From a virus (lineage: Duplodnaviria; Caudoviricetes), in the IMG/VR virus record IMGVR_UViG_3300049896_000006, positions 1 through 48,287 of that record: a DNA stretch of 48,287 nt; one strand, given 5' to 3'. Under the pieces are notes generated by a model that saw only the letters and a program-made list of their open reading frames with translations, searched no databases and had not been told where the DNA came from. How positions within the stretch are numbered: the stretch's first letter is position 1; every line of letters starts with the position of its first letter. Shown in pieces: positions 4,296-42,800 of this stretch. The position numbers were made by a program, and so were the translations under genes.

Positions 4296-5501
4296 TCACG
4301 ATGACTTCCTTCGGGGACGGGCGCGGTGCTTGGGGTTCTCCTCGCGCTGCCTCGCGCGGCGGACGTTGTCGGCGAGGTTCGTGCTGTCGCCGTGGGCCTG
4401 GCGCACGAGGTCGGTGAGGGCCGCGTCGCTGATGTCCGGGTCCGCGTTGAGGGCGTTGCGGATGGTGGCTGCGCGGCTGTCGCCGAACAGCTCGGTGACG
4501 TTCGCGGGCAGCTTGGGTGACGGCCGCTTCCCGGACGTGTCCGTGTCCTGTCCGGACGGGTCGGGGACTGCGGCCGGGTTGGGTGCTGTGGCCTGGGCGG
4601 ACGGCTGTCCGGACAGGGGCGGCACGAGGGTCTGGGCGGGGGTCTGGGCGGGCGCCTGTCCGGCGCTGTGTCCGGTCTGTCCGGCCGGCTGGACGGGCGG
4701 CTGGGGGACGGGCAGGACCGGCGGCACCGGGTCGGGGATGACCGGGCCGGGTGCGGGTGCGGCCGCTTGCATGACCGGAGTCGGGGCGGGCAGTGCCGTC
4801 GTGGTCTCGGCGCTGGTCATGATCGCGCCCGCGGCCTGGTACTCGCGGCCCCCGACGGCGCGGTGCTGCTCCGCGATCCGGTTGAGGGCGGCGATGCGGC
4901 GGGCGAGCTTCGCCTGTCCGGCCGCTTCCTCCGCCTGGTCCTGGACCCAGTTCGCGATGCCCGCGCGCAGCGGGACGTCCTGTGCGTAGATCAGCAGGGC
5001 CCACAGTCCTTTGGCGAGGAGGTCCAGGCAGGCGCCTACTCCGCCGGCCAGGTCCTGGCCGTGGTCGTGGCCGTAGGTGAAGACGGCGGCCATGCTGATC
5101 GCGAGGGCGATCCAGCCGCCGACTCGCGCCGGTACCGCGCGCTTCGGGTCGGTCTGTGACAGGACCCATTCCAGGCCGAGGCAGGCCATCCATGTCGCGG
5201 TGAAGACGACCCCTACGCCGTAGCTGATGACCGGGTGGAGGATCTCGGACAGTTGCCCGCCAACGCTCGCGGTGGTCCCGATCACGGCGAGGCCGGTGAT
5301 CCCGATGGCGAGGCCGGTGACGCCCCGGATGATGACCCGGTCCCAGTCCCTGGGCGGCTGCGCCACGTACACCGTGTACGGCACATCCCGCGTCGAGGAT
5401 CGGCCGTCGATCACGGTCGTCTCCTGCCGGAACCTCGTCTCGGCCTTGTAGCGCACGCCCGGGATCCGCGGCTGCTGCTCGTCGCTGGTGGTGTCGTTCA
5501 C
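4296..5501 (-). CDS. Spd-like membrane protein: TM bundle, coiled coil, Pro-rich linker, C-terminal helical putative DNA-binding domain
   Basis: About 4-5 TM segments, helical AEEAAGQAKLARR stretch, PAP/QP linker, basic C-terminus; GAAAGG RBS before GTG 5501. Confidence 0.75.
   Translation of the reverse strand: MNDTTSDEQQPRIPGVRYKAETRFRQETTVIDGRSSTRDVPYTVYVAQPPRDWDRVIIRGVTGLAIGITGLAVIGTTASVGGQLSEILHPVISYGVGVVFTATWMACLGLEWVLSQTDPKRAVPARVGGWIALAISMAAVFTYGHDHGQDLAGGVGACLDLLAKGLWALLIYAQDVPLRAGIANWVQDQAEEAAGQAKLARRIAALNRIAEQHRAVGGREYQAAGAIMTSAETTTALPAPTPVMQAAAPAPGPVIPDPVPPVLPVPQPPVQPAGQTGHSAGQAPAQTPAQTLVPPLSGQPSAQATAPNPAAVPDPSGQDTDTSGKRPSPKLPANVTELFGDSRAATIRNALNADPDISDAALTDLVRQAHGDSTNLADNVRRARQREENPKHRARPRRKSS
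4530..4685. repeat. TGTCCGGACA-family cluster A
   Basis: CTGTCCGGACAG 4605-4616, TGTCCGGAC 4549, further TGTCCGG at 4657, 4669, 4678. Confidence 0.7.
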
Positions 5502-5590
5502 TGGTGTGCCTTTCGTGTCACAGAGCGATGGGCCGACCCGGGGTTCGTGAAGGAGGGGCACGAACCCGGGCCGGCCCGGTCTGGGATGGA

Positions 5591-5791
5591 TCAGTCGAAG
5601 GGGATCGAGCCCCGGTCTCCGTAGCGGCGGACGGTGTGCTTGTGGCGGTTGACGCGGTCTTTCCTGGCCGCCGCCTCCTTCTTGGCCTGCTTCGCGAGCT
5701 TCGCCCGGTCCTGCGTGGACGGGTTGGAGGGCCGGGGTTGCGAGGCACTCCCCCCACCGAGGGCGGCACGCAGTCCGTCACGGAACCCCAT
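5591..5791 (-). CDS. Small basic hypothetical protein
   Basis: 66-aa ORF, TGATG coupling. Confidence 0.6.
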   Translation of the reverse strand: MGFRDGLRAALGGGSASQPRPSNPSTQDRAKLAKQAKKEAAARKDRVNRHKHTVRRYGDRGSIPFD

Positions 5792-5928
5792 CAGCGACCA
5801 CCCGCCTGGGTACGGGAAGGCTTCGCGTTGACGCCGTCGATGCGTGCGTTGTCCGCGCCCATCCGGGAGTCCTCGCGTTGCTGGCGGCCGGCCTCGTACG
5901 CCTTCGCGGCGCGCTCCTGCTCGCTCAT
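5791..5928 (-). CDS. Small hypothetical protein
   Basis: ATGA overlap with upstream stop, GGAGG RBS. Confidence 0.55.
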   Translation of the reverse strand: MSEQERAAKAYEAGRQQREDSRMGADNARIDGVNAKPSRTQAGGR

Positions 5929-6236
5929 CGGCCTGCCTCCGCCGACAGCACGAGGACCAGCCGCTTGCCGTACTGGCCGCACGTCTCGCCCGCCTCGACG
6001 TCAGGAGCGAACTCCCGCAGTCCCGCGAGGACGGCCGCAGGCCAGCCCTTCGCCAGCTCCGCGGTCAGCCACTCGACGTGGTGCTGCTCGACCGGCGTGG
6101 TCGGCGACGTCTCGCGGAGGATGACCGACATCTCGTCGAGCTTCGCCTCGACGATCTCGCTCACCGTCAGCCCGGCCTCGGCGGCCTGAGCGAGGGTCAG
6201 CGTGGAGGCCATCCGGGCCGCCAGAGTGTTCGTCAT
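5925..6236 (-). CDS. Hypothetical protein
   Basis: MTNTLAARMAS...; overlapping start/stop. Confidence 0.6.
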   Translation of the reverse strand: MTNTLAARMASTLTLAQAAEAGLTVSEIVEAKLDEMSVILRETSPTTPVEQHHVEWLTAELAKGWPAAVLAGLREFAPDVEAGETCGQYGKRLVLVLSAEAGR

Positions 6237-6424
6237 CACGCGGCGACCGCCCTGGCCTGCTCCTGGCGCGGCTGCTGCGGGATGCGGGGCGTGTCGTCCG
6301 ACGGGCGCGGCCTCGGGATGATCGGGATCGCCCGCTCGTTCGCGTCGTCCTCCCACGCCGAACGGATGTCACCGGCGACGCCCTGGGGCGTACGGGAACG
6401 GAGATCAGTACTCTTCTGTGTCAT
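6236..6424 (-). CDS. Small hypothetical protein, first gene of left operon
   Basis: AGGAG RBS; downstream of the 6517 palindrome. Confidence 0.55.
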   Translation of the reverse strand: MTQKSTDLRSRTPQGVAGDIRSAWEDDANERAIPIIPRPRPSDDTPRIPQQPRQEQARAVAA

Positions 6425-6516
6425 GCGTCAGCTCCTGGTAGCTCAGGTTTCTGGCGCGGCCCCCGACCGTTGTTCTCAGGCTCCGGTCGGGGGCCGACTT
6501 GTAGGCGCGGAGTGGC

Positions 6517-6561
6517 GCCGATTGCCCAATCTACGGGACTCCCGTAAATTGGGCAATCGGC
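6517..6561. promoter_or_regulatory. 45-bp near-perfect palindrome containing divergent -10 boxes (operator/promoter)
   Basis: GCCGATTGCCCAATCTACGGGA-C-TCCCGTAAATTGGGCAATCGGC, one mismatch; TAAATT on + and TAGATT on -. Confidence 0.8.
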
Positions 6562-6581
6562 CACGGCAGAAAAGGGACCGG

Positions 6582-6920
6582 ATGGCCGACCAGCAGCCAG
6601 GCGGCGAGGAAGAGGTACAGCGCGTGTTCGACGCACTGGATGGCCTCAAGGCCATGAAGGATCCGAAGGCCCGCGCCAAGGCGATCAGCGCGTTTCTGCG
6701 GGAGCAGCAGCCTCGCCTCAGGGAGTTGAGCGAGCTGCGCCGTGCGTATGTCAAGGATGAGCGGAAGCGGAAAGTTCCACGCTGGAAGATCGCGGAGGAC
6801 ATCGGTGTGTCGGCCTCGACCGTCCAAGACATCGAGCAGGGCTATTCCGGCTCGGGCCGGGCCAGGCCGCCGAAGGGCGAGACTAAGCGTGCTGAAGCAG
6901 GAGAACCCGGAAGCGAGTAG
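6582..6920 (+). CDS. HTH transcriptional regulator divergent from membrane operon
   Basis: WKIAEDIGVSASTVQDIEQG helix-turn-helix; start ATG 6582. Confidence 0.8.
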   Translation: MADQQPGGEEEVQRVFDALDGLKAMKDPKARAKAISAFLREQQPRLRELSELRRAYVKDERKRKVPRWKIAEDIGVSASTVQDIEQGYSGSGRARPPKGETKRAEAGEPGSE

Positions 6921-6954
6921 GCCGACGGCCGACACCGCCTGATCCGGTGCAACT

Positions 6955-6987
6955 GAGGGCCCCGCCAGGGTGATCGGCGGGGCCCTC
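6955..6987 (+). terminator. Stem-loop terminator
   Basis: GAGGGCCCCGCC / GGCGGGGCCCTC 12-bp stem after HTH gene. Confidence 0.65.
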
Positions 6988-7190
6988 GGGTGTCCCCCAG
7001 GCCGCCGGGCGGGGGACGTGCAGGCCGCCGGTTGTGGTCCCGGGCTACGCGGTACCCCTGGGTACCAGGCGGGGCGCGGGCAGCGTCTGGCCGTGCGGGG
7101 TCAGCATGGCATAGGTGGACCGTGGTCCGTTTCGTTGCCGGATGGGATGGGGGTGCGCGTCTGGGGTTGGCCGGATATATATTCGAACTT

Positions 7191-7538
7191 GTGACCGATC
7201 CGTCTCGTCTGGAGCTGCTCCACTTCGCGCGCCGTGTCGTCGTCGAGCAGGCGACGGCGAGCCTGCGGCAGCTCGACGGATGGATCGCGGCGGAGGAGCG
7301 CCGGGAGGCTGAGCGTCGCCGTGGTGAGGAGATGCGGCCGCCGCCTCCCGGGTGGCTTCTCCAGTACGGGCTGAACCGCCAGAACGTTGACGCGGTGCAT
7401 GTGGGCGAGTGCTGGGCTGCAGCGAAGAGTGGGCGGTGCCGGGCGGTTTCGCGGGAACAGGCTCTGGATGCGTTGCGGCAGCAGGTTCCGGCGTGCGATC
7501 ACTGCCGGCCGGACACAGAGCTGGGTTTCCTGGAGTAG
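7191..7538 (+). CDS. DUF6233-like protein, probably leaderless
   Basis: VHVGECW...EQALDAL..VPACDHCRPDTELG; TATATT -10 7 nt before GTG. Confidence 0.75.
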   Translation: MTDPSRLELLHFARRVVVEQATASLRQLDGWIAAEERREAERRRGEEMRPPPPGWLLQYGLNRQNVDAVHVGECWAAAKSGRCRAVSREQALDALRQQVPACDHCRPDTELGFLE

Positions 7539-7551
7539 GGCTGATGCCGAG

Positions 7552-7573
7552 GAGGCCCCGCCGTTGGGGCCTC
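7552..7573. terminator. Hairpin between convergent genes
   Basis: GAGGCCCC / GGGGCCTC. Confidence 0.55.
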
Positions 7574-7581
7574 GTCTGTGT

Positions 7582-7869
7582 CTACCGGTGCCGGGGGCCG
7601 TCGGGATGGGGTTCCCAGACGTGGGAGGCGTGGTTGAGGCGTCGGATGCGGGACCAGGTCCAGACGGGTGCGCACTGGTAGGCCAGGGCTTCGGCGTGGC
7701 GGGCGTGGCGGGCGAAGCGCCGGCGTTTGAGGCGGCGGCGGATGGAGTGCGGGAGGTGGCGCATCAGTGGCCTGCCGGTCTCGTGGCGGGGGGGGGTGAG
7801 GCGGAGGACGGTGACGGGGACTTCGTGGACGCGGCGGGTGTCGTCTCCCCCGGCCCACCGGGCGCTCAC
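7582..7869 (-). CDS. Small basic hypothetical protein
   Basis: GTGA overlap with 7866 stop; start uncertain. Confidence 0.4.
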   Translation of the reverse strand: MSARWAGGDDTRRVHEVPVTVLRLTPPRHETGRPLMRHLPHSIRRRLKRRRFARHARHAEALAYQCAPVWTWSRIRRLNHASHVWEPHPDGPRHR

Positions 7870-9848
7870 GGGGTGGCCGGCGGGTCGAGGGGGCCGGGGT
7901 CCTTGAGCCAGGTCGCGAGGTTGGTCAGGGCGCGGTTGCGGGTGTCGCCTGTGCCGAGGGGGGATAGGCCGCGTTGGCGGGCGATGTACCTGGTGACGGT
8001 GGTGACGTCGGCGCGTAGCCAGTCGTACGCCTCCTTGTACCTGAGGGCGCGGGCGAGGGTGCGGCGGAGGAGGTCGGCACAGTCGGGGCGGTTGCAGGTG
8101 TGGGCGGTGCTGGGCGGGTCGTCCAGGACGGTGGTCGCGGCGTCGGGGCGGCGGCAGTCGTCGTGTGAGCAGGTGACGCAGCCCCCGGACCCGAGGAACA
8201 GGCCCTCGCGCCGGCAGGTGGGGCAGATCCCTGCGACGTGGGGGAAGGTCCAGTCCGCGGGGCCCTTGCCCGTCTGGATGCTGCGCCAGCGTTCGATGGT
8301 CTGGGGGTCGAGGTAGCCGGTGCGGGTGGCTTTGCCGCCGACGTCGGCGTGGACGGTGAAGTGGCCGAGGATGTCGGCGAGGGCGGTGGCGAGTTCGCCG
8401 ACCCGGGCGCGTAGGGCGGCGATCTCGCTGGTGTGGTCGGGGTGGTCGCCGCTTGGGGCGGATCCGCCCGGTGCGGGCAGGGTGGGGTTGTAGCGGGGCA
8501 TGGTGCGCAGGGCGTCGCTGATGGCGAGGGTGAGTTCCCAGTGGGCTGTCTCGCCGGGGCGGGACAGCTCGGTGTCGACAGTCGCGCGGATGACCTTCCG
8601 CTCGCGTTCGGTGTCGGTGAGTCCGTCGGGGCCGAGGTACGTGTCTTCGGCGGCCGGCGGGCCGGGCTCGTCGGGCGCGACCGCCGCGGTGTCCTCGTCG
8701 GGGCCGCGGGGCGTGGCGCGGGTGATCGCGGCGAACGCTTCGGCGAGGGCGGCGCCCATCTGCCGGCGGGGAACGCGTGCTGTCCACACTGTCCGGACAG
8801 TGTCCGGACAGGTTGTCCGGGCCGTGTCCGGGTCGTCCTCGCGGACAGGGTCCGGGTCGTTGTCCGGACACGCTGTCCGGACAATGTCCGTGCTGGTCAA
8901 GACGGGTGCGGTCGTGTCCGTGTCCAGGGCTGTCCGGGGGGTGTCCGGACTGTCCGTGTCCGGACACGTGTCCGGGGTGGTGCCCGGGTCGCCGTCCTTC
9001 CAGAAGAGGGTGCTGCCGTCTTGCGACGTGCCTTCGTGCCAGAGGCCGGGGGTGCCGTCGGGGTGCCGGTCGTGGTGCCGCTCGCAGCGGGCGCGGCCGT
9101 GGAACGGCTCCAGGCAGAGGGACGTGCAGGCCCACGCCTGCGGACGGTGGAGGCCGGTGCGGATACAGGGGCCGTCGCGGCCACAGTCGCAGTCGGCGCA
9201 CCGCCAGCAAAAGAGCTGGTCTAGGTAGTTGTCGTACACGACCGGGCCGCCGCCGCACACGCAACACAGGGCGGCGGCCGGGTACCTGCTCCCCTCGACG
9301 AGGTGCGTGCGGGCGTCGACGACCGCAGGGCGGGCGCTCTTGGGGCACTCGGGGTGCGGGTGGACTTCCTCGCCGTTCTCCTCGTAGCAGAGGCCGCAGT
9401 CGAGCAGCCGGGCGCGGGCCGCGGCGAGAGTCGCTTCAGCGCGCTCGTACCCGTCGTTGTCGGTCGCCGGGTCGAACTGCCACGGCTCGCCCTCGTCGTT
9501 CGTGATCAGGGACCAGCCGGTGAAGGCGCCGCGGTCGTCGGTGTGGACGGCGAGGGCGACGCCGCGGGGGTGGAGTGCGGTGCGGTTGATCAGCCATAGG
9601 AGGCCGCTGTTGCGGAGGTCGGTCCAGGGGCGGGGGGCGCCGGCCGGGCCGGGCTGGGGTTCGTTGGTCGGGGAGATGTCGAAGGCGGCGGGGAAGGTCT
9701 CGCGGCCGCCGCCGGGCGTCTCCAGGACGATGGACCACTGGTCCCATACCTCGGTGAGGCGGCCCTGCCAGACGCGGCGGGGGTCGTCGGGGTGCTTGAC
9801 CGTGACCCAGTGGTCGAGGAGGCCGGTGAGGGTCCGCAGGTCGTTCAC
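7866..9848 (-). CDS. Large mosaic hypothetical protein with several Cys/His clusters
   Basis: 660-aa ORF; CGLC, CCVC, CWRC, CPTC motifs; PDT repeats. Confidence 0.7.
   Translation of the reverse strand: MNDLRTLTGLLDHWVTVKHPDDPRRVWQGRLTEVWDQWSIVLETPGGGRETFPAAFDISPTNEPQPGPAGAPRPWTDLRNSGLLWLINRTALHPRGVALAVHTDDRGAFTGWSLITNDEGEPWQFDPATDNDGYERAEATLAAARARLLDCGLCYEENGEEVHPHPECPKSARPAVVDARTHLVEGSRYPAAALCCVCGGGPVVYDNYLDQLFCWRCADCDCGRDGPCIRTGLHRPQAWACTSLCLEPFHGRARCERHHDRHPDGTPGLWHEGTSQDGSTLFWKDGDPGTTPDTCPDTDSPDTPRTALDTDTTAPVLTSTDIVRTACPDNDPDPVREDDPDTARTTCPDTVRTVWTARVPRRQMGAALAEAFAAITRATPRGPDEDTAAVAPDEPGPPAAEDTYLGPDGLTDTERERKVIRATVDTELSRPGETAHWELTLAISDALRTMPRYNPTLPAPGGSAPSGDHPDHTSEIAALRARVGELATALADILGHFTVHADVGGKATRTGYLDPQTIERWRSIQTGKGPADWTFPHVAGICPTCRREGLFLGSGGCVTCSHDDCRRPDAATTVLDDPPSTAHTCNRPDCADLLRRTLARALRYKEAYDWLRADVTTVTRYIARQRGLSPLGTGDTRNRALTNLATWLKDPGPLDPPATP
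8781..8975. repeat. TGTCCGGACA-family cluster B
   Basis: Perfect 10-mers at 8790, 8801, 8861, 8874, 8957 plus many half-sites. Confidence 0.9.
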
Positions 9849-10258
9849 GGGCGTTCTGCCTTCTCGTCGGGGTCGTCGAGCGGAGGGAAGTCGAGCCAGC
9901 CGCGGAGGCGGTGCAGCCGCTGCCGGGGCCAGTGCCGGAAGAGGCGGGTGGCGTCCGCGGCCGCGAGAATCTCCGGGTCGGTCGAGCGGCGGACGGCGGC
10001 GAGGCAGGTCAGTACGTCGGCGTCGATCCAGACCGGGTCAGAGTGAGCGAGGCACGCGTCGGGCCGGTGCTCGCGGGAGGGCGGACAGACGAGTTCGGAC
10101 GGGCCGCCGGACATGCGCAGGACGACGAGGTCACAGTGCGGGTGCTCACTGATGCCGCCGGCCGCAATCTCGGCCAGTGCTTCCTCGGCGCTGCGGTGCG
10201 GGCGGTACTCGATCGCCGGGTCGTGAGAGAGGCACAGCGTGTAGTAGGTGCTGCTCAC
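9845..10258 (-). CDS. Hypothetical phage protein
   Basis: MSSTYYTLCLSHDPAI...; GTGA coupling. Confidence 0.65.
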   Translation of the reverse strand: MSSTYYTLCLSHDPAIEYRPHRSAEEALAEIAAGGISEHPHCDLVVLRMSGGPSELVCPPSREHRPDACLAHSDPVWIDADVLTCLAAVRRSTDPEILAAADATRLFRHWPRQRLHRLRGWLDFPPLDDPDEKAERP

Positions 10259-10446
10259 CGGGCGGTCCTCCCCTTGTCCAGGAGAAGGCGGGCGACCGTC
10301 TCGTGCACGTACTCGGGCCATCCCTGCAGAAGCTGTGTGAGGGCGTGGTGGTCGCCCTCAGCGGCGCGGCGGCGAAGGCCGTCGATGCGGAGGGCGGCGT
10401 CGATCTCGCCGCGGGTGATGCGGAGTACGGCGAGCAGGGCGGTCAT
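10255..10446 (-). CDS. Small hypothetical protein
   Basis: 63-aa ORF coupled at both ends. Confidence 0.6.
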   Translation of the reverse strand: MTALLAVLRITRGEIDAALRIDGLRRRAAEGDHHALTQLLQGWPEYVHETVARLLLDKGRTAR

Positions 10447-10970
10447 TCGGTCGCCTCGCTGTCGGCCGGTGGCGTCTCGGGCTGCGGGGCGCGCCGGCGT
10501 TCGCAGGCGTCTTCCTCGTCGTTGGTTTCGTGCGCCGCTTCACAGATGGGCATGGGCATGGGTTCGGGGGTGGGCCCGGGGTCGGGCCGTCCGTCGTCGT
10601 ACTGCCAGAGCGGGTGTTCGGGGCGGGCGGTGATGTGGAGGCATTCGAGGAGGTAGCGGGCGGCGTAGGTGCAGACCTCGGGGTGGAGCTCGATCGGGTA
10701 GGGGGTGGCGTTGTCGAGGGCGTGGGCGAGGGCCTCGACAGTCATCCCGCAGCCGGGTGGACACAGGGCCTCGTCCCAGCGGAACTCGCAGCGCTGGCAT
10801 TCGCGCTGCAGCCGTTCGGGCAGGGGGCCTCGGCGCAGGCGGCCGCCGTGGCTCTGGAGGAGCATGCCGGGGGCGAGTGCCGGCTGGTGTCTGGTGTCCG
10901 CCTCGGGGTTGCTGCACTTGGGGCAGGGGGTCTCGGTCCCGCTGTAGGGGGGCAGGATGGTGGCGGTCAT
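10443..10970 (-). CDS. Zinc-ribbon hypothetical protein
   Basis: CPKC...CQRC; ATGA coupling. Confidence 0.65.
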   Translation of the reverse strand: MTATILPPYSGTETPCPKCSNPEADTRHQPALAPGMLLQSHGGRLRRGPLPERLQRECQRCEFRWDEALCPPGCGMTVEALAHALDNATPYPIELHPEVCTYAARYLLECLHITARPEHPLWQYDDGRPDPGPTPEPMPMPICEAAHETNDEEDACERRRAPQPETPPADSEATE

Positions 10971-11329
10971 TCGTCGTCTCCAGCTTCGGCGAGGTAGTCG
11001 GACCGGCGGGGTGCGCCCTTGGGACAGGTGGCGTCGTGGGCTTCGCCGAAGGTTTCCCACCAGGTCTCGCAGGAGCACTGTTCGACGCGGGTCAGGCGGC
11101 GGGCGGCGCGGCGGGCCCGGAGGCGGGTGACCCAGGCGGGGCGTCCGGTCTCGTGGAGGTCGGCGCGGCTGATCTCGCGGACGAGGGCGGCGAGCGTGAT
11201 GGCCGCGATGGCGTACAGGGTGAGGGCGAGATCCCACCGGTCGAGGGTCGCCGCGAGAGTGCCGGCGCGCGCGGTGCCGAGGAGGACCAGGCCGTGGAGG
11301 CCGAACATGATCTTTCCGGTGAGAGTCAT
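10967..11329 (-). CDS. Membrane protein with C-terminal Cys/His cluster
   Basis: Two hydrophobic segments then CSCETWW..HDATC. Confidence 0.6.
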   Translation of the reverse strand: MTLTGKIMFGLHGLVLLGTARAGTLAATLDRWDLALTLYAIAAITLAALVREISRADLHETGRPAWVTRLRARRAARRLTRVEQCSCETWWETFGEAHDATCPKGAPRRSDYLAEAGDDE

Positions 11330-11423
11330 CTGGTCGGCCTCCTCATGGTGTGGCGGGCGCGGCGGGCGGCGTGCGGCACGGTGGCGAGCAGCGGCGCGGC
11401 GAGGATGAGGACGGTCAGGGCGT

Positions 11424-11840
11424 TCACTGTGCGGCCGCCGGGATGTCCATGCGGGGGACCTGGTCGAGGTACTTGGCGTACACGCTCTCGACGGCTTCAC
11501 GGACGGCGGCGGTCAGGACGCGGCGGAAGGCGGGTTCGAGGTGGCTGCCGGCGGCGATCTGTACGGCGATGTCCTCCCCGCGGGGGGTGCGCCAGAGGTG
11601 GGCGTGGATGGGTTCGAGGTCTGCGGCGCCCAGCTCGATCGCCCAGAGGGAGACGTCGGCTGCGCCCCGGACGAGGGCGATGACGCGGCGGGTGATCTCG
11701 TCGTGGTCCTTGCCGCCGGTGACCTGTGTGCAGGCGGGAAGGGTGCTGAGGAATCCGGCGACGTCGGCGGGGTGGGGGTGGCCGGCGAGTTGCTGGTGGA
11801 GGGCGGCGGCCGCCTGGTGGAGGTCGGTGGTGGTGGTCAT
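11424..11840 (-). CDS. Hypothetical protein
   Basis: MTTTTDLHQ...; ATGA coupling, AGGAG RBS. Confidence 0.6.
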   Translation of the reverse strand: MTTTTDLHQAAAALHQQLAGHPHPADVAGFLSTLPACTQVTGGKDHDEITRRVIALVRGAADVSLWAIELGAADLEPIHAHLWRTPRGEDIAVQIAAGSHLEPAFRRVLTAAVREAVESVYAKYLDQVPRMDIPAAAQ

Positions 11841-12457
11841 GGCTGCAGCTCCTGCGGGGTGGGGCGGTGGATGGCGGCCGCGAGGTCGACAGCGGCCTGG
11901 CTGAGGGAGTCCTGTACGAGGCCGCCCTCCTGGTGGACGGATTCGTATGCCTCGTGCAGGACGGCGGTGACGGCCCGGCCGAAGTCGGGGTTGACGGTGG
12001 CGATGTACGCGGCGTCGGCGGCGGCCTGCGGATGCCCGGCCGGGCCGGTGAGGGCGACGCAGTCGGTAGCGGTGGTGCCGCCTGCGACGAGTTCGGCGCC
12101 GGGTGCGGTGCCCTGGCTGACGGTCCAGCGGATACCGGTGGGCGGCCGGTAGGTCCACCGGCCGGGGGTGGCCCTGTTGACGAGGGCGAGGAGCGTGCTC
12201 TCGGCGGCCTGCAGCAGTTCGTCCGGGCGCGGCTGCGGGAGGGTGAGGCCGGCCGGGCCGTGGGCGAGGATGACGCGGGGGCGGCCGCGGACGCCGGAAC
12301 AGGCGGCGCAGTAGTCGGTGCCGCCGTTGGCGCGCCAGCCGTACGCCGCGGCGATCGTGCGGGCCTCGCCGATCGTCAGGGCGTCGGTCATGAGGGACTG
12401 GGCGCATGCCGATAAGCCGTGCACGGTGTTGCAGTGGAGCGAGATGCGGACGCTCAT
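11837..12457 (-). CDS. Zn-finger plus Ead/Ea22-like protein; contains a TTA codon
   Basis: ATPGRW...DAAYIATVNP motif; codon 15 is TTA (12413-12415). Confidence 0.65.
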   Translation of the reverse strand: MSVRISLHCNTVHGLSACAQSLMTDALTIGEARTIAAAYGWRANGGTDYCAACSGVRGRPRVILAHGPAGLTLPQPRPDELLQAAESTLLALVNRATPGRWTYRPPTGIRWTVSQGTAPGAELVAGGTTATDCVALTGPAGHPQAAADAAYIATVNPDFGRAVTAVLHEAYESVHQEGGLVQDSLSQAAVDLAAAIHRPTPQELQP

Positions 12458-13038
12458 GGCTGGATGACCCCGTGCTCGTCGACGCGCAGGGGTACGGGCT
12501 CCTCGGCGAGGTCCCTGGCAATCTTGAGGAGGGCGCGGCAGACGGCCCTCTCGCGTGGGTCCTCGACCGTCTGCTGATCGACGCGGTACAGGCTGACCCG
12601 GTCGGTCGCGGCGTAGATCAGCGCGGGTCCGTCGTCGACGCCGGGTAGCGGCGGCTTGCTGAAGTCCCCGATTTCCAGGGCGTGCACGGCCAGGGCGTGG
12701 CACACGCAGCGCTCGCGCGCATCGGTCGGGGCGGAGCGGTCGACCCAGGTGACGGTGCGGGTCTCGTTCGTTTCCGGGGTGATGTAGAAGAGGGCGGGGC
12801 CGCTCACGGCGAGTTGGAAGCCAGCGGCCCGCAGGGAGCCGACGAGGGGCCGGCCGACCAGGAATGCCCGGTGGACGGGAAGGCTCCAGCGGCTGTCTCC
12901 CACGACGGTGATCCTTTCGCCGTTCAGCTCGGTGACGGTCCCCACGACGGTGTCGGTGGTCGGCAGGGGGAGGGTGCCGCCGACGGTGTCGCCGACGTGG
13001 AGGGGGCGGCCTGCGGCGTCGAGGGTGCTGGTCGTCAT
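12454..13038 (-). CDS. Hypothetical protein with SH3/KOW-like N-terminus
   Basis: LDAAGRPLHVGDTVGG shared with 13171..13704; internal DxRERxVCxAL repeat. Confidence 0.65.
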   Translation of the reverse strand: MTTSTLDAAGRPLHVGDTVGGTLPLPTTDTVVGTVTELNGERITVVGDSRWSLPVHRAFLVGRPLVGSLRAAGFQLAVSGPALFYITPETNETRTVTWVDRSAPTDARERCVCHALAVHALEIGDFSKPPLPGVDDGPALIYAATDRVSLYRVDQQTVEDPRERAVCRALLKIARDLAEEPVPLRVDEHGVIQP

Positions 13039-13170
13039 CTGGGGTGCTCCTGGTGCTGTGGGGGTGTCGGGCCGCCCGCCGGACGCGGGCGGCCCCAGGG
13101 AGAGTTGGCGGGCGGACTGGTCGGCGTTGTGCGCGTGGCCGCGGAGGTCGGCGGCGGGGCGCCTTGGGTG

Positions 13171-34063: not shown

Positions 34064-34185
34064 GGAACACTCCTTCGTGTCAGGCCCCGGGAACCAGCCC
34101 CCGGGACTGTCCGAACCCCCCGGGCGGAGGGCTGGGCCCGCCCACACCCCGGGAACGGGGAGGACACCGGAGTGTGGGCGGGAGT

Positions 34186-34272
34186 TCATCGGTGGAGCAG
34201 GGAGTAACCGACGGACCCCATCCAGGCGGCCACCGACAGCGCCAGGAGCGCCTGTTGAGCGGCTGTCCTCAC
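34186..34272 (-). CDS. 28-aa hydrophobic peptide (not in ORF track)
   Basis: MRTAAQQALLALSVAAWMGSVGYSLLHR; GTGA overlap with HATPase stop. Confidence 0.4.
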   Translation of the reverse strand: MRTAAQQALLALSVAAWMGSVGYSLLHR

Positions 34273-34682
34273 GGGACGACGTCCAGGTGTGCCCAGACCC
34301 GCTTGCCCCAGTGCAGGCGGTCTGTGCCCCACTCCACGGCGAGCGTGTCGACGAGGACCAGGCCCCGCCCGTGCTCCATGCCGGCCGCCCGGCCAGCGAG
34401 GAGGGCGGGCATGATCCTGCTGCAGTCGGTCACCGCGATCCGTACGCCCGCCGGGCGGCGCGTCACGGTCAGCCGCAGCGACGTCCCCCTCGCGTGCACG
34501 ACCGCGTTCGTGACCAGCTCCGAGCAGACCAGGGCCGCATCGTCCACCAGGACGTCGAGGCTCCAGCAGGCGAGCGCCTCGACGGTCAGCCGCCGGGCCT
34601 TCGGTACGGCCGCCCGCTCACGGCCGAGGGACTCGGTGTAGGCGGGAGCCCCGATCCCGACAGCCCTCGCGGCCAGCATCAT
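34269..34682 (-). CDS. HATPase_c anti-sigma-like ATP-binding protein (RsbW/AbaA-like)
   Basis: SELVTNAVVHA, IAVTD, EHGRGLVLV, GKRVWA. Confidence 0.9.
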   Translation of the reverse strand: MMLAARAVGIGAPAYTESLGRERAAVPKARRLTVEALACWSLDVLVDDAALVCSELVTNAVVHARGTSLRLTVTRRPAGVRIAVTDCSRIMPALLAGRAAGMEHGRGLVLVDTLAVEWGTDRLHWGKRVWAHLDVVP

Positions 34683-35239
34683 GAGCCCCCTCCCCACTCT
34701 TCCCGCGCCGCACGGACCCGGCCGATCTCCGCGACCATGGCCAGCCGACCGGGCTGACACAGATCGCCCGGCCCATGCATCGCCACCGACCAGTAGGAGA
34801 GACCCACACCGGGCGCGAACAGGGCGGGCGAGGGCACGACGAGGGCGGACTGCCGGCCGAGGAACGTCGTGCTCTCCGCGGCCCAGTCGTGCTCAGCGCT
34901 CGCCGGGACCAGCGCGTAGTAGCGGCCTTCCCTCACCTCATGGAAGACGCCGCCGCCCTCAAGCGACTCGTCGAGGTAGACGGCGACCTTCACCGGGTTG
35001 CTCGTGCCGGCGGCCGCATGGACCAGCCAGTCGGGCAGGCAGACCGCCGAGAACAGCGTGCCGCAGTTGAGCAGGGCGCGGCCGGTGTCAACCCAGTTCT
35101 CACGCGCCTGCTCCAGATCGTGAGCGGCCTGCAGCAGCCATGTCCCGGCCGCCGCCGCCCGTTCCTCCGGGCTCACGTCCCGTGGTGCGGGCGGATTCCC
35201 GCCCACCGTTAGTCGCGGCTCGCGCGCTGATGTCGCCAT
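34679..35239 (-). CDS. Hypothetical protein, possibly primase-polymerase-like fold
   Basis: FSAVCLP...GGVFH...YYALVP...LVVPSP; ATGA-coupled to HATPase. Confidence 0.65.
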   Translation of the reverse strand: MATSAREPRLTVGGNPPAPRDVSPEERAAAAGTWLLQAAHDLEQARENWVDTGRALLNCGTLFSAVCLPDWLVHAAAGTSNPVKVAVYLDESLEGGGVFHEVREGRYYALVPASAEHDWAAESTTFLGRQSALVVPSPALFAPGVGLSYWSVAMHGPGDLCQPGRLAMVAEIGRVRAAREEWGGGS

Positions 35240-35372
35240 GGTGAAGCCCCCAACCGGCTCTGACGTTTGCAGTGATGGCGAGTACAACGGGCATTACCCT
35301 GAGTCAACTAGTACCGGCACAGGGCAACCTGTATAACCCGGTATAACGCCCTGGTTGGGAGGGTGGAGCACC

Positions 35373-36770
35373 ATGACAGATCACACTCGCGCGCGTAACG
35401 AGAAGCTGCACGAGGCCCTGAAGCAGGCCGATCTGACGTACGAACAGCTCGCGTCGATGGTCCGTCAGATCGCAGCCGGATGCGGCACCGAGCTGCGCAC
35501 GAACAGGTCCGCTGTCGGGTACTGGATAAGGGGCAACGACCCCGAGCCCGTGACGGCGACGTACATTGCTGAGGCGATCTCTCGCAGACTCGGCCGTCAC
35601 CTCACACCCAGCGACCTGGGGTTCAGGACTCCTGAACCGGACCGGGCCCGAGAGGCCGAGGTTGGGTTGGCCATCGGACCCGATCCAGTGGCCATGCTAC
35701 GGCGCATCGGGGAGGCAGACATCAACCGCAGGAAGATTTTGACAGGGGCGGCCTACAGCGTCGCCGCGGCGGCCCTGCCGCTGGGACGCGCCGAGGCCGC
35801 TGAGGCCCAGGCCAGAGCAACGACCGCCGCAGGACGCCTAGTCGGCGAGACAGACGTCGCCACCGTCCGGTCCATGCTGCGTGCCTTCACCGCGATCGAC
35901 GAAAGCCAGGGCGGCCGGCACGGCCGGTCAGCCGTCGTGCAGTACCTCCGCAGCGACGTCGCCGACCTCACCCGGGGTCGGTTCCTCAAAGAGTCCACCC
36001 GCGCCGACGCCCTCACCGCCGCCGCCGCGCTCACCTTCCTCGCCGGATGGAAGGCATACGACGCCGGCGAACACGGACTCGCCCAGCGCTACTACCTCCA
36101 GGCCCTCGGCCTGACCCGCGAGGCCGACCACCCACTGCACCAGGCATGGGTCCTGCGGATCATGGCGCACAACGGCATGGACGTCGACCAGCCCGCGCAC
36201 ACCCTCGACCTCGCGGACGCCGCTCTAGACCTCGCAAAGGACCGCGCGGACCCAGGCATGCTGTCCATGTTCGTCATCTGCCGCGCGCGAGCGCTCAGCT
36301 ACGCAGGCCGGGGCGCCGAGGCGGTCAGCGAGATCCGCCGCGCGCAGGACCTCGCAACGCGCGACGCCACCGGAGAGATCCCGTACTGGACGGCCCTCTT
36401 CGGACCGCCCCGCGCCGCCGTCTCGTCCCACGCGGCGAAGGTCTTCCGCACCCTGAGGGACCACGCCAACGCAGAGAAGCAGTACGGGGCGGCCGGCCGT
36501 GGCTACAGCCGCGCCGACGGCGGCCTCTCCCGCATCACCGCACTGTCCCTCGCCTCACAGGGCAAGGAACAGGCCGCACAGGGCCACCTGGAGCAGGCAT
36601 GCGGCACCTGGGACCAGGCCCTCACGTTCTTCGAGGGCGTCTACTCCGACCGCGCCGTCAAGCAGGTCGCAGGCATCCGCCGACAACTCGCCACGTTCGA
36701 GCGGCGAGGCGTGCGCGCTGCAGCGGAACTCGACGAGCGGGCCCGCACCTGGCAGTCCTGCTACGCCTGA
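35373..36770 (+). CDS. NsdA-like XRE-HTH + TPR-like transcriptional regulator
   Basis: RNEKL..AL...LASMV...SAVGYWIRG..P; INRRKIL; AGWKAYDAGEHGLAQRYYLQAL. Confidence 0.8.
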   Translation: MTDHTRARNEKLHEALKQADLTYEQLASMVRQIAAGCGTELRTNRSAVGYWIRGNDPEPVTATYIAEAISRRLGRHLTPSDLGFRTPEPDRAREAEVGLAIGPDPVAMLRRIGEADINRRKILTGAAYSVAAAALPLGRAEAAEAQARATTAAGRLVGETDVATVRSMLRAFTAIDESQGGRHGRSAVVQYLRSDVADLTRGRFLKESTRADALTAAAALTFLAGWKAYDAGEHGLAQRYYLQALGLTREADHPLHQAWVLRIMAHNGMDVDQPAHTLDLADAALDLAKDRADPGMLSMFVICRARALSYAGRGAEAVSEIRRAQDLATRDATGEIPYWTALFGPPRAAVSSHAAKVFRTLRDHANAEKQYGAAGRGYSRADGGLSRITALSLASQGKEQAAQGHLEQACGTWDQALTFFEGVYSDRAVKQVAGIRRQLATFERRGVRAAAELDERARTWQSCYA

Positions 36771-38675: not shown

Positions 38676-39563
38676 TCACCCACCCGGCGTCTGGAGCGCG
38701 TCACCGAGGACGTCGAGGGCAGCGCGCGCGCCGGCCTCCGCCGCGGCCTTGGCCTCCTCGACCGTCAGCCCGCCACCCGCCACCAGCTTGGCGAGCACGG
38801 CATCCTGAGCGGCGCCCTGGGCGAGGACCTGCCGAACCCCGGCCTCGAGCCCGCGCACTCTCTTCCCCTCATCGAGCAGGATCGAAGCGGGCGCCCACTG
38901 CGGGTTGTCCTTCGTCGTCCACTCCGGAGGGACAGCAACCACACCGTCCGTCAGCCACGCTGCGCGCGCGATGCCGGCCAGCACGCCGTCGACGACCTTC
39001 TTGATCTCTGCGTCCGTGAGTGCCACGGTCTCCCCTCTCACCCGGGCGACGATCCCCGGGAACACGACCTGCTTGAACTGAGCGATCCGGGCGCCGCCGG
39101 GGCACTTGGTGCCGCCCGACGACCACTGAGGGAACATCGAGTGCCACCCGTACCCGGGGTCGCTGTGCGTGCGGCACAGCCGCAGGGGGACAGTCGGATG
39201 CGTCTCGTGCACCCACGCCCCGAACCGGATCAGGGTCTCGATCTGCGCGCCCGTCCACGGATCCGTGTGGTCAAGGTTGCTCGCCGTCTCCACCGACACC
39301 GCTCCGGTCCCATCCGCCCGCAGGTTCGCGCCCGCGTTCGCGTCCGCCCTCGTCTGCGTCCCGATGAACTGGGCCACCGACCCGTCGTATCCGACCGCGA
39401 GATGGCTCTCTAGGTTCGTGCTGTCCCGCCAGTACTCGTACGTACGCCCCGGCGTCCAGGGCGCGGCCAGGCTGTGCGCGATGAGCTGCGTCGGGACGAT
39501 CGCCGGCTGATCGTCGCTCTCGGGCTGGAGCTCCAGCCGCTTCGCACCCGCCCACCAGGCCAT
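38676..39563 (-). CDS. Endolysin, N-acetylmuramoyl-L-alanine amidase type 2
   Basis: LIAHS, ESHLAV, SVET, GWH...KCPG Zn ligands; start ATG 39563. Confidence 0.88.
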   Translation of the reverse strand: MAWWAGAKRLELQPESDDQPAIVPTQLIAHSLAAPWTPGRTYEYWRDSTNLESHLAVGYDGSVAQFIGTQTRADANAGANLRADGTGAVSVETASNLDHTDPWTGAQIETLIRFGAWVHETHPTVPLRLCRTHSDPGYGWHSMFPQWSSGGTKCPGGARIAQFKQVVFPGIVARVRGETVALTDAEIKKVVDGVLAGIARAAWLTDGVVAVPPEWTTKDNPQWAPASILLDEGKRVRGLEAGVRQVLAQGAAQDAVLAKLVAGGGLTVEEAKAAAEAGARAALDVLGDALQTPGG

Positions 39564-39835
39564 CAGACACGCTCCCAGTCGTCGGCGAGGGCATCGGTCT
39601 GGCTGATCACCCACGGCACGAAGTCGCCCCCGACGGTGCGGAGCATCAGGTACGGCAGGAACCGGCACACGGTCCCCTCCACGAGGCCCGTCGCCGCCGC
39701 GGTGTTCGAGTTGATGGGGATGCCGTCGGGGTAGCCCGCCTGGTGCACGACCCACATGCCCGTACCGTTCCACCCCGCCCGCGTGATGCGGGCACCGTCC
39801 CTGACCGCCGCGCGCAGCGCCTCCCCGATGTCCAC
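39563..39835 (-). CDS. DUF2829 / Tad2-like protein
   Basis: 90 aa; IGEAL...G.RITRAGWNG.GMW...PYLM...VPW..SQTDALADDW. Confidence 0.85.
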   Translation of the reverse strand: MDIGEALRAAVRDGARITRAGWNGTGMWVVHQAGYPDGIPINSNTAAATGLVEGTVCRFLPYLMLRTVGGDFVPWVISQTDALADDWERV

Positions 39836-39836
39836 C

Positions 39837-40121
39837 TCAGCTCTCCATCTGGTGCCCGGACAGGCGGGCCGCGGTCTCCTCGGGGATGCCGACCGCGCAG
39901 AGCGCCTCGTAGTCGCCCTGCGTCCGGCGCCGGTCCTCCGCAGCGAGGCCGCCCACATACTCCTCGTGCGCCGTGGTGATCCCGGCGAGCAGCTTGGCGT
40001 GCTCCTTCTCGCTGATCCTGGCCATGCCCTCGGGCACGGCCACGGAGTCGGCGCCGCCGTTCGTGACGACCGTCTTCACCGCCCCGCTGGCGGCCTTGAA
40101 GTACAGGGTGGTCTCGCTCAC
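39837..40121 (-). CDS. Small tail-fibre partner/chaperone-like protein, copy 2
   Basis: Paralogue of 41111..41419; follows fibre-like gene. Confidence 0.7.
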   Translation of the reverse strand: MSETTLYFKAASGAVKTVVTNGGADSVAVPEGMARISEKEHAKLLAGITTAHEEYVGGLAAEDRRRTQGDYEALCAVGIPEETAARLSGHQMES

Positions 40122-40133: not shown

Positions 40134-41051
40134 CTACAGGTTGAAAATGAACGCGCGGTGGGCAACCTGGATGCGGCTGTACGTCGCCCCTCCGAACCCG
40201 CCGCCGAGACGGATATCGATCGAGTCGTTGACGTTCCCACCTGCGGGAATCGTCGCGTTGAAGACCTTCGTCACCTGCACGTGGACGTCGTTCATGGTGG
40301 TTGTGCCTTTGTTCTCCATCCGCACCATGTCGTCGTTGTTCAGGGAGTAGATCCCGCCCGAGTTCGCCGGCAGCGTCAGGTCGACGTCCAGCTCGATCTC
40401 AGTGATGAGGAACGCCGGCCGACAGGCGTCCGGGTTCGCGATCGGCATCGTGTCGGTCTCGATCGTCACCTGTAGAGCGGCCGGCACCGCCACGTCGGCG
40501 TAGTTCGTCGTGCTGAACTGCTGCTGGAAAGTCGCCTGGGACCGCGGCTCGCCGCGCAGGGTCCCGGTGTCGTCGCAGTAGACCCGCCCAGCGTTCGCCT
40601 CAACGTCGCACGCATACGGCCACGCTCCGACCGCGACGGCGAGAGGATCACCCACCGCCCCCGTGCCGGTGAGCCCGCAATCCGTCGTCACGTTGGCGCC
40701 GCCCGTCGCAGCGATCACACCCGTGACCGGGTCGTAGTCGATCCCGGGCCCCTCGGACAGACACTCCCGCACCGACGCGCAGTCGGTATCGACGTACAGC
40801 CCGCCGTCCGGCGCGAACTCCACCAGGTTGCCCGGGGCCGGGGACAGCCGCGCCGAGATGATCCCCGACGTCTGGTTGTACGCCGCGCCCTTGCCTGCCG
40901 ACATACACGGCCGTACCTGCTCGCAGTCGATCGTGTCGATAGCGACGACGTACGGGCTCCCCGGCGTACCACTGCCGGTGACGCTCACGCCCGTACCGGC
41001 CTGCACCGAACAGTTACAGGTCTCGACCGCGGAACAGCCACAGCGTGCCAA
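40134..41051 (-). CDS. Cys-rich tail fibre-like protein, copy 2
   Basis: TTG start gives MARCGC..., matching 41431..42555; about 1.5 internal repeats. Confidence 0.75.
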   Translation of the reverse strand: MARCGCSAVETCNCSVQAGTGVSVTGSGTPGSPYVVAIDTIDCEQVRPCMSAGKGAAYNQTSGIISARLSPAPGNLVEFAPDGGLYVDTDCASVRECLSEGPGIDYDPVTGVIAATGGANVTTDCGLTGTGAVGDPLAVAVGAWPYACDVEANAGRVYCDDTGTLRGEPRSQATFQQQFSTTNYADVAVPAALQVTIETDTMPIANPDACRPAFLITEIELDVDLTLPANSGGIYSLNNDDMVRMENKGTTTMNDVHVQVTKVFNATIPAGGNVNDSIDIRLGGGFGGATYSRIQVAHRAFIFNL

Positions 41052-41079
41052 GGGGTATCTCCCGCACCTCGGAAGTCGC

Positions 41080-41113
41080 CCGGCCCACAACCAGCGGCAG
41101 CACAAGGAGTCTA
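41080..41113 (-). promoter_or_regulatory. -10 box plus 17-bp leader motif
   Basis: TAGACT-N11-CGCTGGTTGTGGGCCGG; motif ends 29 nt from start. Confidence 0.8.
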
Positions 41114-41419
41114 CGGCGTGACGACCCCGGCCCCCGCGTCGAGCGAGGCGAGCCCCGACAACCGCCGCGCCGTCACCTCGGGGATGCCGCAGGCCCGCAG
41201 GGCGTCGAAGTCGTCCGTGGCCCGCCGCCGATCGTCCGCGGTGATCGCCGCCACACGCGCCGCCCTCGCCTCGGTCATCACCGCGAGCAACTGGTCATGC
41301 TCCTCCACCGTGATCCTGGTCATACCCTCAGGCGGCACCACCTCGTCCTCACCGGCCGAGGTAGTGATGCGCTTCACCGCTCCCTCGTCACTGCGGAAGT
41401 ACAGAATGCTGTCGGTCAC
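41111..41419 (-). CDS. Small tail-fibre partner/chaperone-like protein, copy 1
   Basis: MTDSILYFRS...GIPEVTARRLSG. Confidence 0.7.
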   Translation of the reverse strand: MTDSILYFRSDEGAVKRITTSAGEDEVVPPEGMTRITVEEHDQLLAVMTEARAARVAAITADDRRRATDDFDALRACGIPEVTARRLSGLASLDAGAGVVTP

Positions 41420-41430
41420 TTGCGCGCCCC

Positions 41431-42555
41431 TTACAGGCTGAAGACCCACGCGCGGTGGATCGTCTGGATACGGGAGTACGTCGCCCCGCCGAAGCCCCCG
41501 CCGATACGGACCTCGATCGGGTCGACGATCGCGCCGCCCGCCGGGATCGTCGCCCGGAAGACCTTCGTGACTTGCCAGTGGACGTCATTCATCAGGGCGG
41601 CGCCCCTGTTCTCCATCCGCACCATGTCATCGGCCGCGATGCCATAGATCCCGCCCGAGTTCGCGGGCAGGTCCATGTCGACGTCGACCTCCGTCTCGAT
41701 GATCACGATGGCCTCCCGGCACGGGTCCGGGTTGGGGATGGCCAGGTTGTCGGTGACGATCGTCACCGTCGCCCCCGCCGGGACCGGCACATTGGCGAAG
41801 TTCGTGACGTCGAACTGCTGCACAAAGCTGGCCTGACCGCGTGGCTCGCTGCGGAGTAGCCCCGCGCTGTCGCAGTACACGAGACCGGCGCCATCGTCGA
41901 CGGGGCAGGGCAGCGTCCAAGGGCTCGTGGCGGCGGTCACCGGCGTAGCCGCCGAGCCGTCACCTGTGAGGCCACAGCCGGTGGTCACCGTCGCGGGCGG
42001 GACGAACAAGCCGCCGTCTCCGCCGAAGGTGACTGTGTTACCGACGTCGGTCGACGGGCGGGCCGAGACGACACCGGTCGCCGGCACGAACGCCGCACCC
42101 TGCCCGGCCGAGATGCACGCGCGGACCGTGGCACAGTCGACCGCCCCGGCCGCAGCGAACAGGCCGCCGTCCCCGCCGAAGGTGACCGTGTTCCCCGGGT
42201 CCGTCGACGGCCGGGCAGAGATCTGCCCAGTGACCGGGTCGTAGTCGATACCCGGGCCCTCGCTCAGGCAGGACCGCACCGACGCACAGTCCGTCTCGAC
42301 GAACAGCCCGCCGTCCCCGCCGAACTCCACCAGGTTGCCCGGGTCGGTCGAAGGCCGCGCCGAGACCACGCCGCTCGCCGCACTGTAGGCCGCACCGTTG
42401 CCGGCCGAGATGCACGGTCGGACAGCCGAACAGGGAGGGTCGTCCGCGCTCACCACGAACGGGTTCGTCGACGAGCCGCTACCCGTGACAGTCGTCCCCG
42501 TCCCGGCCTCGACGAAGCAATTGCAGGAGCCGCCTCCACATCCGCACCTCGCCAT
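41431..42555 (-). CDS. Cys-rich tail fibre-like protein, copy 1
   Basis: Three repeats of about 48-51 aa (CxxVRxC...SARPSTDxGN...GGDGGLF); beta-rich C-terminus. Confidence 0.78.
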   Translation of the reverse strand: MARCGCGGGSCNCFVEAGTGTTVTGSGSSTNPFVVSADDPPCSAVRPCISAGNGAAYSAASGVVSARPSTDPGNLVEFGGDGGLFVETDCASVRSCLSEGPGIDYDPVTGQISARPSTDPGNTVTFGGDGGLFAAAGAVDCATVRACISAGQGAAFVPATGVVSARPSTDVGNTVTFGGDGGLFVPPATVTTGCGLTGDGSAATPVTAATSPWTLPCPVDDGAGLVYCDSAGLLRSEPRGQASFVQQFDVTNFANVPVPAGATVTIVTDNLAIPNPDPCREAIVIIETEVDVDMDLPANSGGIYGIAADDMVRMENRGAALMNDVHWQVTKVFRATIPAGGAIVDPIEVRIGGGFGGATYSRIQTIHRAWVFSL

Positions 42556-42584
42556 GGGGTCACCTCTTCCGTGATGGACGAGGC

Positions 42585-42618
42585 CCGGCCCACAACCAGC
42601 GGCGTCCCGACGAGTCTA
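42585..42618 (-). promoter_or_regulatory. -10 box plus 17-bp leader motif
   Basis: TAGACT-N11-CGCTGGTTGTGGGCCGG; 30 nt from ATG 42555. Confidence 0.8.
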
Positions 42619-42619
42619 C

Positions 42620-42800
42620 GGGCGGACACCGCCCGGACATTGTCCGGACAGTGCCCGCGGAGGTGTCCGCCCATGTCCGCCCGCCGTGTCCGGCAACCCT
42701 GTGACCAGCGCGGACACTGTCCCGGACACCGTGTCCGCAAGCTGTCCGGAGCGGTGTCCTACGGACACTGTGTCCAGGCCGTTCGGACACCGTGTCCGGA
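42620..42800. repeat. TGTCCGGACA-family cluster D (intergenic)
   Basis: TGTCCGGACA 42641 and more than ten TGTCC/GGACA half-sites. Confidence 0.85.

Follow-up and report, generated by a model that had tools for sequence, protein, structure and literature searches.

The closest described counterparts of the locus considered here are the Spd proteins of Streptomyces plasmids and a few phage proteins that act at the membrane. SpdB2 of plasmid pSVH1 has four predicted membrane helices and is reported to bind DNA non-specifically, and SpdB2 homologues found on some actinophages have been proposed to assist the spread of phage DNA (PMC4447253). A different protein, SpdA2, binds the palindrome sps, CGTCACGTGACG, and has a role in stability, not spread; SpdA and SpdA2 are 117-163 residues long, with an N-terminal DNA-binding region (PMC4170104). 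Among phages, AlpA of CGP3 binds 24 alpS repeats and is required for efficient replication (PMC4446434), and p16.7 of phi29 organises membrane-associated replication (PMC11476376). The stretch of DNA analysed here, called the window, is the complete 48,287-base virus record IMGVR_UViG_3300049896_000006 (rated 52% complete; G+C 71%), which comes from a temperate Streptomyces-type tailed phage from soil. It combines a gene for an SpdB-like membrane protein (4296-5501) with four dispersed arrays of the half-site TGTCC/GGACA. The arrays are a real, selected DNA signal, and, judging from sequence comparison, the three-helix tail of the SpdB-like protein is likely to be what binds them. No published account of these arrays, or of the core sequence within them, was found in the main texts of a mostly open-access literature.

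A preliminary description of the window had reported four dense clusters of palindromes and half-sites, and the counts bear this out. All eight perfect copies of the palindrome TGTCCGGACA (at 4606, 8790, 8801, 8861, 8874, 8957, 21360, and 42641) fall inside the clusters. The arrays hold 8 (A), 21 (B), 12 (C), and 17 (D) half-sites, whereas the densest 200-bp windows of 300 Markov simulations (orders 3-5, 100 each) contained at most 6 half-sites and the palindrome reached no more than 3 copies. Array A (4538-4682) is the weakest, with a single perfect palindrome, and lies where it had been placed, in the Pro/Ala linker of the SpdB-like protein (codons 274-322). Array B (8781-8973), with five perfect palindromes, is within a 660-residue open reading frame (7866-9848); array C (21210-21397) runs from the 3' end of a 93-residue membrane open reading frame (21237-21518) into the start of whiB; and array D (42624-42797) is intergenic, extending from the stop of the tail gene at 42801-43403 to a -10-like TAGACT element. 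No strand is assigned to any of the four. The positions of B, C, and D are kept in relatives. As the description had also claimed, the signal does not follow the protein: GGACA is mostly in frame 0 in array A and in frame 2 in array B, and array D is noncoding. G+C at third codon positions (GC3) is lower inside the arrays than outside (0.85 versus 0.92 for A; 0.79 versus 0.93 for B). Contigs of the probable source run match positions 4200-21600, spanning A to C, with no differences in long pieces, and a second soil run covering array A has two substitutions, none within half-sites. Just 3' of array B, the open reading frame encodes a short strand-helix motif, ...ARVPRR..GAALAEAF, which recurs in gp87 of phage TurkishDelight and in the phage-plasmid pSITFR-21c and might be a small DNA-binding or dimer element.

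Two features of array anatomy, an 11-12-bp phasing, which spaces the units one helical turn apart, and an asymmetric core, are additions to the preliminary description. With two duplicate loci and four control records excluded, a set of 116 arrays (1014 half-sites in all, drawn from 46 sources) shows spacings between same-strand half-sites that peak at 11-12, 21-24, 33-34, and 44-45 bp. In the window alone, none of 2000 permutations reaches the observed phase. Each of the four window arrays also contains one asymmetric core, TGTCC-NN-GCWGGTCR: CGTCC-GC-CCAGGCCA in A (4589-4603, minus strand; degenerate), TGTCC-GT-GCTGGTCA in B (8885-8899, plus strand), TGTCC-GG-GCAGGTCA in C (21305-21319, plus strand), and TGTCC-GC-GCTGGTCA in D (42702-42716, minus strand). 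One further degenerate match lies outside the arrays, at 3510. Across relatives, the exact core octamer occurs 24 times at +2 from a half-site, 22 times at 13-14, and twice elsewhere; with at most one mismatch, it is found at +2 in half of the arrays (58 of 116). The octamer is not restricted to TGTCC arrays. It is present within arrays of other units (GGAAC, GGAGA, GTAGC) in 6 of 37 stretches inspected, adjoins the repeats of the window's rep gene at 17640, and in phage Mischief19 (L164) lies, as TGACCTGC, at the center of each of the dispersed GCATGC or GCAAC arrays at 11596, 34151, 34382, and 35919. Because the core also occurs in arrays of other units, it is probably bound by a second factor, likely an architectural protein of the host comparable to IHF. 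In plasmid pIJ101, the linker of spdB (L301 2982-3006) likewise carries the TGACCTGC core, followed by two GTCAC words (the sps half-site) 12 bp apart, though this may be chance.

The gene at 4296-5501 (minus strand) encodes a 401-residue membrane protein, recognized by its hydrophobicity, its structure model, and its homology to SpdB. In the model, a β-hairpin (residues 18-47) and four hydrophobic helices (56-173) are followed by a long coiled-coil helix (180-232), the disordered linker that holds array A, and a tail of three helices (343-388), the third of which has conserved arginines. The membrane part matches pIJ101 SpdB (HHalign 93.5%, E 2.4e-7, 131 columns; hidden Markov model E 1.3e-8), and PF27080 (SpdB_N) is found on 32 of 50 homologues. 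Thus, the protein is a homologue of SpdB, not of SpdA, and the SpdA-type precedent of the preliminary description had merged two things: SpdA is a small binder of another palindrome. The sps sequence CGTCACGTGACG is absent from the window, as against two copies in pIJ101, and an SpdA/sps identity is rejected on that ground and by the size, four hydrophobic helices, and C-terminal domain of the protein. Other searches were unproductive: Pfam scans of the protein and of its tail gave no meaningful family, a PDB sequence search nothing relevant, Foldseek with the full model no match at E 0.001, and a single-sequence search of the locus nothing.

What points to the tail as the binder is that the array unit covaries with a residue in its third helix. 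The unit shifts together in all arrays of one genome, for example to CGTCCG/CATCCG in genome G014 and to YGTCCC in TurkishDelight, and this concerted change argues for one phage-encoded reader. At the position corresponding to residue 383 of the window protein (Ala383), Thr, Ser, or Ala accompanies TGTCC, and Tyr accompanies CGTCC, CATCC, or GATCC. Within the main clade of SpdB trees (a quick tree and FastTree trees), the fraction of TG units is 0.14-0.31 in the four Tyr genomes versus 0.25-0.87 in 31 others, after exclusion of rows with fewer than 14 sites and of five duplicates. Clade-2 proteins, which mostly have Tyr, go with GATCCG-rich or TGTCCT arrays in the 3' halves of their own genes. 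In genome G011, the membrane domain is 92-98% identical to that of L118 and G022, but within the linker the sequence changes over to a tail of the G014 type, with Tyr, in agreement with the distant arrays of that genome, and L092 shows a similar switch. The covariation between motif and C-terminal domain that the preliminary description had proposed as a check is thus present, with overlap from two genomes discussed below.

The distribution of the arrays also ties them to the membrane protein. In each of eight relatives that have a main-clade spdB and are nearly complete (83-119 kb), 4-6 merged array sites lie at intervals of 2-42 kb, and six lie in the 87 kb examined of the circular, 103.5-kb pSITFR-21c. 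The sites recur at the same loci (after the tail gene, in a capsid-protease linker, downstream of the membrane operon, in spdB, at the site of array B, and at whiB), and at matching loci the array sequences are visibly different. At 31 tail-gene loci, seven have an array with five or more TGTCC half-sites, six of them at the position of D, and 24 have none; here again the sequences differ visibly while the units are identical. Neither spdB nor TGTCC arrays are found in the tail-related phages G026 and G027 (searched whole) or phiSAJS1 and Mischief19 (50 kb each); a cluster of six sites in phiSAJS1 has neither palindrome nor core and was rejected as ordinary coding sequence. Of the 33 overlapping palindrome-plus-half-site matches in five host genomes, 30 are no more than about 100 kb from the spdB locus, as are all five core matches, and a reversed control pattern gives no match. 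Among 53 homologue loci, 22 have at least five half-sites in the 3' part of the gene. The association extends to a Protofrankia plasmid, whose spdB homologue (L300 9641-10609; E 7e-50) lies two genes upstream of a Walker-A protein and has a linker that contains GTCC/GGAC units together with a GCAGGTCA core. The palindrome as a word is less specific: doubled TGTCCGGACA occurs in 67 viral stretches, versus 5 for a control palindrome, and many of the 67 are non-actinobacterial, so the word alone is not diagnostic. Five non-actinobacterial viral contigs (L032, L041, L043, L054, and L061) have TGTCC/GGACA arrays, often beside a CCCC-TATA-GGGG-like palindrome, that resemble origins.

Several findings weigh against a simple pairing of SpdB tail and array. 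Two genomes without Tyr, G006 (Thr, 0.28) and TurkishDelight (Leu, 0.25), fall within the Tyr range. The Tyr genomes are not independent, as their tails group together in the tree, and therefore p=0.002 overstates the association between residue and unit. The crossover in G011 could reflect recombination in a repeat-rich linker. The tail itself is predicted to form three helices, yet its resemblance to helix-turn-helix folds is weak (best VIA Z 5.5, Foldseek E above 2), the tail of pIJ101 SpdB gives no profile match with it (E 0.73), and SpdB2 is reported to bind DNA non-specifically. Genes and arrays are also found apart. Fewer than five TGTCC half-sites are present in the gene at 31 of the 53 homologue loci; phage SF3 has a homologue and no array in 60.9 kb; and G023, G024, and G025 have a clade-2 spdB with local arrays only, none dispersed, indicating that dispersal also tracks the phage backbone. 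Conversely, a search of 20 array- or core-bearing records gave an spdB match in nine, and of the 11 that are at least 90% complete, four (G010, G015, G016, and G020) had no match. The sequences of G015 and G016, like those of G003 and G007, stop in or before the operon, and G010 is unrelated. The proposed link between arrays and membrane protein draws real support from the conserved positions, the helical phasing, the absence of arrays from phages without the gene, and the covariation of unit and helix, with these exceptions set against it.

If the tail is a helix-turn-helix that reads the array unit, the residue at position 383 of helix 3 would set the first bases, and a membrane oligomer of the SpdB-like protein could grip many phased units on one face of the DNA helix. 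The core, through a second and probably host architectural protein, would organise the complex. The phage genome might then be held to the membrane at several points, aiding its passage between hyphal compartments, with sites at intervals of 6-40 kb taking the place of the one clt site that a motor-driven plasmid has. The phage has no detectable DNA pump of its own, within the window and 10 relatives: PF01580 (FtsK/TraB) is absent from all 10 and from the 52%-complete window, so that the TraB precedent invoked earlier finds no counterpart there. A search with pIJ101 Tra matched G027 and Mischief19 only, both lacking TGTCC arrays and this SpdB family; these two phages encode a TraB-like translocase and no member of the family. 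Movement would thus have to use a translocase of the host or of a plasmid, or be passive passage through an Spd pore. That the arrays tether phage DNA to the membrane at several sites so that it can spread through hyphae has, on this evidence, about an even chance of being right. Purpose is the weakest step; spread is favoured because of the plasmid homology and the operon context. A bolder version is only tentative and on balance doubtful: a large family of temperate Streptomyces phages would share a motor-less, plasmid-derived Spd apparatus in which SpdB reads a phage-specific code in 4-8 phased, genome-tiled arrays, one helix-3 residue sets that code, the core serves an undescribed actinobacterial IHF-like factor, and phage DNA crosses the hyphal cross-walls without lysis.

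The same binder could serve another purpose, anchoring the excised genome for lytic replication or keeping circular copies in branches and spores. All evidence on the binder fits this equally well, and so does the lack of a motor in the window and the 10 relatives; precedents are p16.7 of phi29 (PMC11476376), AlpA/alpS of CGP3 (PMC4446434), and the stability role of sps/SpdA2 (PMC4170104), and pSITFR-21c, with its six arrays, is a circular phage-plasmid. The protein is nevertheless homologous to a plasmid spread protein and lies in an operon of several membrane genes, and pSITFR-21c and TurkishDelight have ParB-like genes of their own. Anchoring is a close contender, though rather unlikely. 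A more distant alternative dispenses with the membrane. In this view, a soluble phage regulator, the product of a backbone gene such as HTH_58, WhiB, or Cro, would use the arrays as operators or as transcription roadblocks, and their association with spdB would reflect common ancestry. Arrays C and D do adjoin likely promoters or gene starts, a point that counts against tethering: C spans the start of whiB, D stops at the TAGACT element, and other arrays precede gene starts. A sigma-70 scan found no promoter near D. The candidate regulator, a small HTH_58 protein encoded downstream of whiB (20521-20856, minus strand), is present in eight of nine array-positive genomes, and dispersed GCATGC arrays built around the same core occur in Mischief19, which lacks spdB. 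However, G013 has six arrays and no HTH_58 match, G025 has the HTH_58 protein and no dispersed arrays, and WhiB is present in five of seven genomes without dispersed arrays. Arrays A and B and the capsid-protease array lie deep within coding linkers, the unit tracks the SpdB helix, and the cI/cro operator consists of another repeat, CATGCA. A regulator of this kind is improbable.

The remaining explanations place the reader outside the phage or dispense with it. If the arrays imitated the sites at which a protein of the host or of a plasmid loads, such as clt for a co-resident TraB or sites for a nucleoid protein, the phage would hitch-hike. The lack of a phage motor, a core common to arrays of many units and elements, and the same units on a plasmid with a TraB-like gene agree with this. 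Against it, host chromosomes are nearly free of arrays, and the unit drifts in concert within each phage and in step with the helix that the phage itself encodes, a pattern not to be expected of a fixed reader supplied by the host. Such mimicry is quite improbable for the arrays as a whole but plausible for the core alone. Neutral or selfish expansion of a palindrome tolerated in linkers and gaps accords with the low constraint of the places where arrays lie and with the 67 viral stretches, many non-actinobacterial, that have the doubled word. It is hard to reconcile with the helical phase and the single core at a fixed offset, with matching positions despite differing sequence, with the concerted change of unit, or with the lowered GC3, the confinement to prophage in hosts, and the mere five stretches with the control palindrome. 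It is very improbable.

The SpdB-like gene is the first of an operon on the minus strand that contains further membrane genes and a nuclease. A NERD-domain nuclease with an N-terminal hydrophobic segment (3302-4093) is encoded downstream of spdB, as it is in many relatives. It is followed by a protein with a C-terminal hydrophobic bundle, whose real start is uncertain within the open reading frame 2197-3465, a small membrane protein (1715-2185; start read from the sequence), and the last large gene of the operon (631-1713), which encodes a membrane protein with a conserved C-terminal domain. The preliminary description had offered 631-1713 as an alternative binder. It fits poorly, as the array at the 3' end of its counterpart in relatives has a separate, different unit: TCTCC/GGAGA, with the same core (L076 14265, L082 14444, G001 59096), which suggests a second pair of protein and array. 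Within the matching region of the window (510-780), GGTAC/ATACC words cluster at 510-570, and the 3' end of 631-1713 carries C-run repeats. The idea that this gene encodes a motor-less TraB is unsupported: it scores 0.3% against the C-terminus of pIJ101 Tra, structural matches named FtsK reach a TM of at most 0.31, and among the 120 longer homologues listed, of 132, none exceeds 485 residues or has a Pfam domain.

Family scans of the window identify a tyrosine integrase, a cI/cro pair, an excisionase, YqaJ/RecT, a DnaQ-like exonuclease, WhiB, a putative replication initiator, and lysis and tail genes. By its tail protein, the nearest cultured relative is TurkishDelight (58%), which has a similar gene order. 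Other repeats of the phage were considered as counterparts of the arrays and set aside. The rep gene (16706-18238) has different repeats and no TGTCC array: three of CCCCAAAAAG type at 17560-17650, in the linker of the initiator and beside a GCAGGTCA core, are likely origin iterons, and the putative initiator of TurkishDelight, gp71, has a cluster of GTCAC/GTGAC repeats (sps-like half-sites) in its linker (L002 7159-7289). Immunity operators are likewise distinct from the array motif. Palindromic CATGCA/TGCACA repeats at 28512-28570, between cro (28261-28563) and cI (28649-29254), are likely to be those operators, and similar clusters are present in G001, G012, and G014. General scans of the partial window found no ParA, ParB, or parS, and two relatives, pSITFR-21c and TurkishDelight, have ParB-like genes. 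The GATC-binding nucleoid protein Gbn was judged from the literature alone and rejected as a relative; the available part of PMC9239103 mentions spdB only as a regulated gene. Elsewhere in the window, a gene with a Tad2-like (anti-Thoeris) domain (39563-39958; Pfam E 1.6e-19) adjoins the lysin, and an accessory block between the integrase and lysis genes (32379-36770) contains a JmjC protein, DUF397, a HATPase_c protein, and a 471-residue regulator. A paralogous pair of tail-fibre-like genes (40134-42555), each followed by a small paralogous gene, has DNA repeats about 76% identical. An element like GCTGGTTGTGGGCCGG occurs four times upstream of tail genes (41071, 42576, 43507, and 45975), preceded twice by TAGACT; it is found in relatives too and may be a late-promoter or RNA element.

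For the previously speculative idea that phage SpdB proteins assist spread, the arrays offer candidates for the cis sites, a residue predicted to set specificity, and variants found in nature, and thus make a long-open idea directly testable in cultured material: TurkishDelight, pSITFR-21c, and several sequenced lysogens. If the idea is right, phages of filamentous bacteria can position or move DNA inside the mycelium without a pump of their own. Found in origins and operators as well as in spd arrays, the TGACCWGC core may be the mark of a general architectural factor of the host. What is taken here to be the 8-bp clt repeat, whose sequence is unconfirmed in print and which is not used in the argument, has nine copies in the window, four in or near arrays.

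Compared with known systems, the protein resembles SpdB and SpdB2 in its homologous four-helix membrane domain and coiled coil, its small helical C-terminal domain, and its operon of membrane genes. It differs in belonging to a temperate tailed phage in which no TraB is found and in having a tail unmatched to that of pIJ101, and where SpdB2 is described as a non-specific binder, a sequence-specific one with a genome-wide set of arrays is proposed here. As in the AlpA/alpS and p16.7 systems, the protein proposed to act here comes from the phage and would work at the membrane, positioning phage DNA or organising its replication, and alpS is likewise a repeat cluster, with 24 repeats (PMC4446434; PMC11476376). 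However, AlpA is a soluble adaptor for an actin and alpS a single locus, and general scans of the window found no actin-like gene. As with sps (PMC4170104), a short palindrome lies within the coding DNA of its own putative binder, there one with a stability role; sps has 1-3 copies at one locus, whereas here a different unit forms 8-21 half-sites per array at several loci. As with clt and TraB (PMC4447253), clustered short repeats would join DNA to a membrane complex, but clt consists of direct 8-bp repeats at a single locus, read by an FtsK-like motor, and here the repeats lie at several loci and in both orientations, with no motor found. The arrays work most like sps or clt attached to an SpdB protein, yet fit neither class.

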